This document shows positions 23,225 through 23,563 of a DNA stretch of 64,000 nt, piece by piece; position 1 is the first letter of the stretch, and every line of letters starts with the position of its first letter. The stretch covers positions 832,001-896,000 of the forward strand of contig CM000433.1 in assembly GCA_000165345.1 (NCBI GenBank). Direction: 5' to 3'. Both the position numbers and the translations under genes were made by a program. The notes under the pieces are model-generated. The model had not been told where the DNA came from. It saw nothing but the letters and a program-made list of their open reading frames with translations, and ran no database searches.

Positions 23225-23563
23225 TATAAAAAACTTTATTTTACATTTGATAATGAAGATAATATAATATTAGTTAATTGATTCAGTTGTGTTGTCAAAA
23301 ATTACTATTTACCGGTTTTACAGGAAATTTTCCATTAAAAAAAAAAAAAATAATTTTTATTTCGTTACCGTAAATACCGGTATAAAGGGTACCGATAAAA
23401 TAATTTGATTAATCAACTTGAGGGAAAAAAAATTTTTCTGTATTGAAGAAAAAAAAAGAAATATATATTTTAATTATCTTTTAACTTTAAAGCTTTATAT
23501 GGGTATTTGAACTTGTTTATATATTTTATATCAATTTTTTTTAAAGAATTTATATATTATAAC

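Follow-up and report, generated by a model that had tools for sequence, protein, structure and literature searches.

Is the short word ATACCGG, which stands in palindromic form in the divergent promoter between cgd5_3670 and cgd5_3680 of Cryptosporidium parvum, a regulatory element in its own right, and if so, what kind of protein might read it? Gene regulation in Cryptosporidium is poorly understood, and few promoter words have been published for it. A preliminary description of this DNA noted that the heptamer, commonly followed by T or C, recurs in many upstream regions, usually beside an E2F-like box. It proposed a cis element that might serve either as a partner site for E2F/DP or as the target of an unrelated factor. 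Here we follow the word through the whole 64-kb stretch of DNA in which it was noticed (hereafter the window) and through orthologous loci of related species, and we weigh the explanations that could account for it.

The window and the comparative sample

The window covers approximately cgd5_3600 to cgd5_3890 on C. parvum chromosome 5 (locus tags include 5g3610, 5g3670 and 5g3760). Its G+C content is 27%, its intergenic share is 36.5%, and a 100-N assembly gap lies at 12016-12115. Syntenic DNA, ~22 kb per species, was located via orthologues of Sec1, AP-1 gamma and the beta-catenin-like protein. The part of the window from 16.5 to 38.5 kb was compared in C. ubiquitum, C. felis, C. canis, C. 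bovis and C. muris, and the part from 42.7 to 64 kb in chipmunk genotype I, C. canis, C. felis, C. xiaoi and C. andersoni. A second C. canis isolate alone represents the stretch between both syntenic regions. Gene order is kept throughout all syntenic stretches compared. The whole sample, one 64-kb window plus ten orthologous loci over two syntenic stretches, is thus local and not genome-wide.

An Rfam scan of the whole window matched no RNA family, so the candidate sites do not lie within known RNA genes. Pfam scans of 30 window ORFs found no gene for an AP2, Myb, E2F or other DNA-binding factor.

Frequency of the word

The heptamer ATACCGG has 12 matches on both strands of the window, against 0.89 expected from dinucleotide-preserving shuffles, and none of 100 shuffles reaches 12. 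For ATACCGGY, eight matches stand against 0.27 expected from shuffles of the window. Under a second-order Markov model of the window, ATACCGG ranks 21st among 6406 7-mers (P = 1.4e-9, or ~1e-5 after Bonferroni correction). When words from the tandem repeat in coding DNA at 11321-12007 and from codon repeats are left out, it is the third GC-containing 7-mer by enrichment, exceeded only by GGCGCCA (E2F) and GCATGCA (AP2_1). The 10-bp palindrome ATACCGGTAT occurs three times (23374, 24690 and 48136), against 0.018 expected. The contexts of the window sites are unique rather than repeated.

Upstream matches to ATACCGG start at 13820, 23374, 40093, 48136 and 59403 on the plus strand and at 30042 and 59459 on the minus strand, and TACCGA variants occur at 35116 and 50932 (Table 1). 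All instances cited in the preliminary description exist, at positions 0-10 nt away from those given there; TTACCGTAAATACCGGTATAAAGGGTACCGAT, for example, lies at 23365-23396 and not at 23375-23407. To these we add TACCGGT at 23310, CGGTACCG at 52386-52393, and coding copies at 10236, 24690 and 50429, all of which had been missed.

Table 1. Sites of the word and flanking genes in C. parvum, in window coordinates
Feature	Position	Strand	Context
ATACCGG	13820..13826	+	131 nt upstream of ATG, cgd5_3610 (12361-13689, -); E2F box TTGGCGCC ~13 nt away
cgd5_3670	22010-23224	-	flanks 339-nt divergent promoter
TACCGGT, inside TTTACCGGTTTTAC	23310..23316	.	second site, cgd5_3670/3680 promoter; 65 nt from palindrome
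TACCG units flanking palindrome	23365..23396	.	TTACCGT 23365-23371; GGTACCGAT 23388-23396
Palindromic ATACCGGTAT	23374..23383	.	339-nt divergent promoter (23225-23563), cgd5_3670 / cgd5_3680
cgd5_3680, WD-repeat gene	23564-24727	+	flanks 339-nt divergent promoter
ATACCGGTAT, coding	24690..24699	.	in last 13 codons of cgd5_3680; N-T-G-I within conserved QN(N/S/R)TGIKI
Sec1-family ORF	26558-28558	-	100% identical to C. parvum Iowa II protein
LSm1	29189-29671	-	flanks 30042 site
ATACCGG (+ strand: CCGGTAT)	30042..30048	-	divergent promoter LSm1 / S17e; GGCGGGAA 22 nt away
Ribosomal protein S17e	30479-30874	+	flanks 30042 site
Variant ATACCGA	35115..35121	+	145 nt upstream of FSAF1-like gene (35266-35706, +), between two E2F boxes
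ATACCGGC	40093..40100	+	divergent promoter Snf7 (39253-39870, -) / beta-catenin-like gene (from 40411, +); 3 nt from TTGGCGCCA
Palindromic ATACCGGTAT	48136..48145	.	~370 nt upstream of RGG/FoP-like ORF (48507-48986, +)
ATACCGG, coding	50429..50435	+	inside BSD-domain ORF (50196-50585, -)
CGGTACCGA, overlapping inverted TACCG units	52386..52396	.	abuts GCGCGCC; ~295 nt upstream of AP-1 gamma adaptin gene (52686-55574, +)
ATACCGGC, site 1	59403..59410	+	~200-nt divergent promoter, DEAD/DEAH helicase / cgd5_3870-like gene (59544-60800, +)
ATACCGG (+ strand: CCGGTAT), site 2 of helicase promoter	59459..59465	-	85 nt upstream of ATG 59544

Position relative to genes

The word is concentrated upstream of genes. 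Seven of nine ATACCGG loci and nine of twelve TACCGG loci in the window are intergenic, and every one of these lies in a divergent or tandem spacer with at least one gene start; convergent spacers of the window contain none. The three coding loci make up the rest of the TACCGG loci. The palindrome at 24690 is probably a coding coincidence that does not belong to the element. Reading it as a 3′-end or antisense promoter element was considered and set aside, given the conserved N-T-G-I peptide and a convergent next gene, which leaves no promoter at this place. The copy at 50429 is probably due to chance. Altogether, 7 of ~21 upstream regions in the window carry TACCGG, roughly a third.

Pooling C. 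parvum with six other non-gastric species (~210 kb) sharpens the contrast between compartments. TACCGG was observed 37 times in 54 kb of upstream spacers against 5.15 expected (7.2-fold, P = 1e-19) and 17 times in 148 kb of genes against 11.1 expected (1.5-fold), and neither TACCGG nor ATACCGG occurs in 7.8 kb of convergent spacers. For ATACCGG, the enrichment is 12.3-fold in upstream spacers and 2.2-fold in genes. An upstream frequency no higher than that of coding or 3′ DNA, once composition is accounted for, had been named in advance as the outcome that would speak against a cis element; on these ~210 kb the opposite is seen.

Sites lie 57-553 nt upstream of the nearest ATG (median about 170), a zone shared with E2F boxes. 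Either orientation is seen. Most sites are in short bidirectional promoters, with one or two copies each, and paired sites in bidirectional promoters are often 47-65 nt apart. The densest cluster among the promoters is that of cgd5_3670/3680, with 4-5 TACCG units.

Core and consensus

Flank preferences were scored on 79 TACCG units from upstream spacers. A or G is preferred at position -1; G follows the unit at position +5 in 37/79 cases and A in 15/79; T or C is favoured at +6 (C in 22/79, G in only 3/79); and A at +7. The refined consensus is R-TACCGG-Y-A. Consequently, the heptamer first described does recur, but is slightly over-specified, the invariant core being TACCGG after A or G. In orthologous alignments TACCGG is invariant and the opposite palindrome half varies, and the palindromes ATACCGGTAT or CGGTACCG are therefore an occasional, optional doubling of the core. 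The overlapping arrangement CGGTACCG, present at 52386, is also found in C. ubiquitum and C. bovis. As probes of the candidate site we name the 8-mers ATACCGGT, TACCGGTA and GTACCGGT, with ATAAAGGTAT as the probe to set against ATACCGGTAT in a binding comparison.

Conservation across species

Conservation among Cryptosporidium species had been suggested as a check on the element, and it proves to be specific to promoters and inherited with them. TACCGG is present in 13/18 orthologues of parvum-positive upstream spacers as against 1/42 of parvum-negative ones (Fisher p = 2e-8). Restricting the comparison to C. canis, C. felis, C. bovis and C. xiaoi leaves 9/16 against 0/32 (p = 7e-6), and both p-values are optimistic, since the species are related and independence is overstated. 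In these four species the proteins encoded here are 43-85% identical to those of C. parvum, and the DNA flanking the sites is largely unalignable. The word is thus retained at orthologous promoters amid diverged non-coding DNA. Further, when 6-mers were screened for presence over 87 spacer-by-species cells, CGGTAC, ACCGGT, CCGGTA and GGTACC came next below the E2F words, level with GCATGC.

Within promoter alignments of 41-45% mean column identity, CCGGTA forms an island of identity. The helicase promoter is an example: CCGGTA is invariant in C. parvum, chipmunk genotype I, C. canis, C. felis and C. xiaoi across an alignment with 41% mean column identity. The same promoter illustrates turnover, with one palindrome in C. 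canis and C. felis corresponding to two non-palindromic sites in C. parvum and chipmunk genotype I. Such turnover is typical of binding sites. The place of the 59403 site is taken by AATACCGGCAC in chipmunk genotype I, and the second site in C. xiaoi reads GTACCGGTAT.

The cgd5_3670/3680 promoter carries at least two sites each in C. parvum, C. ubiquitum, C. canis, C. felis and C. bovis. The palindrome at 23374 corresponds to TATACCGGCC in C. ubiquitum and TTTACCGGTATAC in C. canis, and the CGGTACC adjoining the TACCGG site near 23374 is also kept in these two species. The site at 23310 belongs to a block, A(A/T)ACCGG(T/C)AAAT.GTAATTTTTGACAA, common to C. parvum, C. ubiquitum, C. canis and C. 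felis, with GTACCGATAT in C. bovis.

In the S17e/LSm1, FSAF1, FoP-like and AP-1 gamma promoters, the site is kept in two to four species each. Orthologues of the 30042 site are TATACCGGTAAT (C. ubiquitum), TATACCGGCAAT (two C. canis isolates) and GGTACCGGTGAA (C. bovis). Those of the 35115 site are GCGGTACCGGTAG (C. ubiquitum) and GGTACCGA followed by TTTTGGCG (two C. canis isolates), and no site was found in the FSAF1-like promoter of C. felis, C. bovis or C. muris. The 48136 site is represented by TGTATACCGGAATTTGTATGCA in chipmunk genotype I, TGTATACCGGCATATGTGTG in C. canis and AAAATACCGA in C. felis. The 52386 site is represented by GCGCGCCCGGTACCGTA in chipmunk genotype I and CCCGCCAGGTACCGTA in C. 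canis, and the AP-1 gamma promoters of C. felis and C. xiaoi have no site. Conservation is therefore incomplete: the S17e/LSm1 promoter of C. felis, like that of C. muris, has no site, and at the Snf7 promoter (40093) C. canis has TACCAC in place of TACCGG (aligned block ACGATACCACATTAGGCGGG), with the E2F boxes kept.

Taken together, the element is real and conserved in promoters of non-gastric Cryptosporidium. The proposal of a cis element of promoters is strongly supported, both by upstream enrichment and by retention where intergenic identity is otherwise ~41-45%.

Relation to E2F and other boxes

The word was said to lie usually beside an E2F-like box. This holds for about half of the promoters. 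An E2F-like box is no more than about 25 nt from the sites at 13820, 30042, 35116, 40093, 52387 and 59459, but there is none near the 23310/23374 cluster or 48136, and the nearest to 59403 is 78 nt away. Over all species, 10/28 sites have an E2F-like box within 30 nt, where a uniform null predicts 3.2. G-box words cluster similarly (7 against 2.1 expected, uniform null), and part of the E2F proximity is consequently a matter of general crowding in the promoter core. The suggested role as an E2F/DP partner site is thus favoured by the excess of close boxes and weakened by the similar clustering of G-boxes and by the cgd5_3670/3680 promoter, in which no E2F-like box was found in any of five non-gastric species sampled.

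Where both words occur, they form separate conserved blocks with an overall spacing of 3-27 nt. The E2F spacing in the S17e/LSm1 promoter is 21-27 nt in three of four species, and in the helicase promoter an E2F-like box lies 22-31 nt downstream of CCGGTA across five species; in C. parvum this is GCGGGAAA, 23 nt downstream of the 59459 site. Conserved modules hold sites together with E2F-like boxes (GGCGCC, GCGGGAAA). Other neighbours exist as well: in two promoters a conserved CRE-like TGACGTAA box stands 12-15 nt off the site, seen as TTACGTCA (48114-48121) 14 nt upstream of the 48136 palindrome and as TGACGTAA 12 nt downstream of the 59403 site. With an E2F association that is only partial and a distinct core, TACCGG is best described as a separate word in composite modules, neither an obligatory E2F partner nor an E2F variant.

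Gastric species

The two gastric species differ from the rest of the sample. C. muris has no TACCGG at all in 22 kb, and C. andersoni has none in the intergenic DNA of 23 kb, including the helicase promoter, where all other species sampled have one. Gastric upstream DNA amounts to 5.9 kb in this sample, in which ~4 matches would be expected at non-gastric density, and the absence of the element from gastric species is accordingly suggestive. Should it extend genome-wide, it would link the element with the divergence of intestinal from gastric species. The cgd5_3670/3680 promoter is a case in point: from C. parvum to C. bovis it contains 2-5 TACCG units and no E2F box, and in C. muris it has an inverted E2F pair, TTGGCGCTATATAGCGCCAA, and no TACCGG.

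We speculate that the TACCGG factor, or its specificity, might exist only in the non-gastric lineage, where it would have taken charge of promoters that in gastric species are driven by E2F/DP. We regard this as a possibility that is still rather doubtful. If true, it would represent a datable promoter rewiring inside a single parasite genus, and a third major regulator beside E2F/DP and the AP2 family in an organism with a very small known repertoire of transcription factors.

A putative binding site and the alternatives

Judged from its sequence and distribution, R-TACCGG-Y-A is probably bound by a sequence-specific DNA-binding protein, and would act in the core of the promoters of some RNA polymerase II genes in non-gastric Cryptosporidium. 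The bound factor would help to open or activate the promoters that carry the site. Where an E2F box is present, it might work together with E2F/DP; where the box is absent, as between cgd5_3670 and cgd5_3680, it may itself do the main work. Going by what the site looks like, our guess is that a Myb-type or AP2-domain protein would be the leading candidate.

A less likely reading is a general factor of promoter architecture of the yeast Reb1/Abf1 type. Such a protein would bind in the middle of a bidirectional promoter, exclude nucleosomes and separate the divergent units with little effect on the timing of expression, and would not be a gene-specific activator. The concentration of sites in short divergent promoters, their frequent pairing ~50-65 nt apart beside long A/T tracts and the likeness of the word to the Reb1 site TTACCCG all suit such a factor, as does the distribution of target genes over different expression clusters in the part of the cluster data considered. 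However, only about a third of window upstream regions carry the motif, and the divergent promoters BCD1/PRMT, zfDNL/u305 and DCP1/u1051 lack it in every species, which excludes a universal architectural role.

It is very improbable that TACCGG is a divergent E2F/DP site, bound by a C. parvum E2F or DP paralogue. E2F boxes are frequently adjacent, C. muris has its inverted E2F pair where other species have TACCGG, and one per-cluster MEME motif, CCGGCAAATTTTGGCG (cluster 2), was filed as E2F in the part of Oberstaller 2013 (PMC3734150) considered. Yet the E2F core [C/G]GCGC[G/C] or GGCGGG, set between a T-rich and an A-rich run (PMC3734150), is in no TACCGG site, and neither is GCGC or GCGG. 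The two words stand side by side as the separate blocks described above, and it is TACCGC/GGCGGTA words that behave as E2F variants, whereas TACCGG contains no GCG.

We attach just as little weight to an element acting in RNA, such as a 5′-UTR signal for translation or stability, or to the transcription start or initiator itself. Some sites are only 57-90 nt from the ATG. Against this, sites point either way with respect to the nearest gene, include perfect palindromes, lie in the middle of bidirectional promoters, and at one orthologous site the ATG distance ranges from 71 to 189 nt, all of which fits recognition of double-stranded DNA better. Finally, chance, base composition or a by-product of coding sequence or repeats, to which three of the twelve TACCGG loci being coding and the explanation of the 24690 palindrome by its peptide might point, is effectively refuted by the shuffles, the corrected P value, the unique site contexts and the promoter-specific conservation.

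For Cryptosporidium gene regulation, the interest of a binding site of this kind is clear; beyond the genus it is moderate. A further conserved word that marks about a third of the window upstream regions, and can stand without an E2F box, gives a concrete starting point for the search, by DNA pulldown or PBM, for another regulator. It could also be used in compact synthetic promoters for transgenic parasites, and in explaining the expression of genes that fall outside the E2F model.

Comparison with known motifs and factors

Early work on C. parvum (Bankier 2003) reportedly found only two abundant words. The preliminary description did not recognise the word as a named Cryptosporidium motif, and the literature surveyed here agrees. 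CCGG or ACCG is in none of the 25 over-represented upstream patterns in Table 1 of Oberstaller 2013 (PMC3734150), and TACCGG is neither listed among the motifs nor entered in the AP2 binding table of a 2025 review (PMC12246861). No ACCG, CCGG or CGGT string appears in Mullapudi 2007, Cohn 2010, Oberstaller 2014, Li 2021 or a 2025 ATAC-seq preprint, and full texts in which ACCGGT or TACCGG occurs with Cryptosporidium or apicomplexan contain it in primer sequences only. The published C. parvum promoter words are E2F, AP2_1, AP2_2, G-box, GAGA and CAAT-box (PMC12246861), and ATAC-seq peaks have so far yielded E2F and poly-T motifs only (PMC12246861; bioRxiv 10.1101/2025.01.17.633476). In the part of Oberstaller 2013 (PMC3734150) considered, clusters 66, 15 and 108 hold cgd5_3680, cgd5_3790 and cgd5_3850 respectively. 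These three placed carrier genes share no common expression cluster there, and the target genes have no obvious common function. The word probably escaped earlier cluster-wise searches because its carriers fall in different clusters, as far as that part of the source goes. As a side observation on the same portion, CCGGCAAATTTTGGCG looks like the composite at 40093.

Among known elements, the E2F/DP box (TTTGGCGCCAAA, GGCGGGAA; PMC3734150) is close in kind and a frequent neighbour. It, too, is a short, GC-containing and often palindromic word in an AT-rich genome, confined to upstream DNA, conserved between species and found in housekeeping promoters. It differs in core, that of TACCGG being CCGG flanked by TA. 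It is present in nearly all upstream regions here, against the smaller fraction that carry TACCGG, and it persists in the gastric species sampled, where TACCGG is missing. The AP2_1 motif TGCATGCA, to which several ApiAP2 domains bind (PMC3734150, PMC12246861), resembles TACCGG in its over-representation, its cross-species upstream presence and its palindromic form, but is unrelated in sequence. Indeed, R-TACCGG-Y-A shares no core with TGCATGCA (AP2_1), GCACAC/GTGTGT (AP2_2) or G.GGGG (G-box; PMC12246861 Tables 3 and 4), and nothing like it stands among the PBM specificities given for the 18 C. parvum AP2 proteins (PMC12246861). An ApiAP2 with TACCGG specificity is not on record in the Cryptosporidium motif literature surveyed.

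Two families bear on the candidate factors. The plant DRE/CRT element TACCGACAT, with core RCCGAC, is recognised by AP2-domain proteins of the DREB/CBF type; the AP2 domains of plant DREB proteins bind TACCGAC, and those of Apicomplexa are their homologues. TACCGA is common to the DRE and to the variants TACCGA(T) at 23390, 35116 and 50932. The dominant form here, by contrast, is TACCGG(T/C)A and not CCGAC: G follows TACCG more often than A does, as scored above, which sets the word apart from a plant-type DRE/CRT. The Myb-binding site, YAACNG, offers a second parallel, as it likewise has a six-base asymmetric core whose last positions tolerate variation, and one of its forms, TAACGG, is one base from TACCGG. 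All 79 TACCG units have C at the third base, where the Myb core has A, a position fixed by the search definition, and the likeness to a canonical Myb site is thus one of resemblance only. C. parvum has 16 Myb-domain proteins, several of them proposed as DNA-binding by homology alone and only Myb-M functionally validated (PMC12246861).

Further parallels come from outside the Apicomplexa. In yeast, the Reb1 site is TTACCCG(G). Sites of Reb1 and other general regulatory factors share with TACCGG a TACC..GG-like core and a place beside poly(dA:dT) tracts, in the nucleosome-free middle of housekeeping promoters that are compact and often bidirectional. TACCGG has one C fewer and marks only a subset of promoters here, and we know of no Reb1 orthologue in Cryptosporidium. 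In Drosophila, the DRE TATCGATA, bound by DREF, accompanies E2F sites in the promoters of proliferation genes. It is a short palindromic partner word beside E2F boxes of growth-related genes, and in this respect much like TACCGG. The two differ in sequence, and the E2F association is only partial here; to our knowledge, the BED-finger family of DREF is not known in Apicomplexa. An ETS site (GGAA core, CCGGAAGT) was also considered for ATACCGGAAAT at 30042. Its orthologues are CCGGTAAT (C. ubiquitum), CCGGCAAT (C. canis) and CCGGTGAA (C. bovis), and the ETS reading was rejected because GGAA is not conserved. Relative to the C. parvum motif catalogues (PMC3734150, PMC12246861), the word itself is new; the kind of feature it represents is well known.

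Promoter elements

The promoter shared by the divergent genes cgd5_3670 and cgd5_3680 differs between the gastric species C. muris and five non-gastric Cryptosporidium species. Among the five non-gastric species compared (C. parvum, C. ubiquitum, C. canis, C. felis and C. bovis), TACCGG sites, the core of the candidate promoter element, are present and the E2F box is absent. In the C. muris orthologue of this promoter, an inverted pair of E2F boxes occurs and TACCGG was not found. This pattern suggests that one element has been replaced by the other.

A further box, resembling CRE/bZIP sites, accompanies TACCGG at 48136 and 59403, at a distance of 12-15 nt. 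Across the whole window, two of its three copies adjoin a TACCGG site, and the box is kept in the chipmunk genotype I, C. canis and C. xiaoi.

Coordinates of sequence features (C. parvum window unless stated)
Feature	Position	Strand	Details
CRE/bZIP-like box TGACGTAA	48114-48121	-	near TACCGG site 48136
CRE/bZIP-like box TGACGTAA	59422-59429	+	near TACCGG site 59403
TTTTTGACAA block	23283-23292		reads TTGTCAAAAA on + strand; columns about 372-381 of the cgd5_3670/3680 promoter alignment
C. muris orthologue of cgd5_3670/3680 promoter	14366-14692 of C. muris syntenic locus L008		contains inverted E2F box pair TTGGCGCTATATAGCGCCAA
Palindrome ATACCGGTAT	24690-24699		within coding sequence
Coding tandem repeat	11321-12115, including adjoining gap		24-nt unit, about 20 copies
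Beta-catenin-like protein ORF	40411-41514	+	stop after 367 aa
SbmA/BacA-like gene (PF05992)	3402-4424	-	E = 4e-61
SbmA/BacA-like gene (PF05992)	4810-5826	+	E = 1e-55

Coding sequences and gene models

Conservation of the coding palindrome is probably protein-driven. Its rare threonine codon ACC is retained in C. parvum, C. ubiquitum, C. canis and C. felis (ACC GGT/GGC), a synonymous conservation that is notable in an AT-rich genome.

The tandem repeat, His/Asp-rich in one frame, leads into a 100-N assembly gap (12016-12115). cgd5_3610 encodes 442 aa here, but newer assemblies of C. parvum give it 692 aa, and the window therefore represents an older, gapped assembly. The beta-catenin-like protein reaches 546 aa in newer annotations with an identical N-terminus, which points to a frameshift or unrecognised intron near 41514.

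The two SbmA/BacA-like genes are divergently transcribed paralogues of a family known mainly from bacteria.

Comparison with described motifs

The TTTTTGACAA block of the cgd5_3670/3680 promoter, 20 nt from a ACCGGTAAAT site, is conserved in C. parvum, C. ubiquitum, C. canis and C. felis. Its sequence agrees with 'motif 22' (HTKWYGAC) of Oberstaller 2013 (PMC3734150), a motif to which no factor is assigned. In upstream spacers of all loci, CTCGTC, CGTCTC and CGAGAC each occur in 13 spacer-by-species cells (3.3 expected); together they may represent another conserved promoter word, of GAGACG type, possibly related to 'unknown set 1' of the same study.
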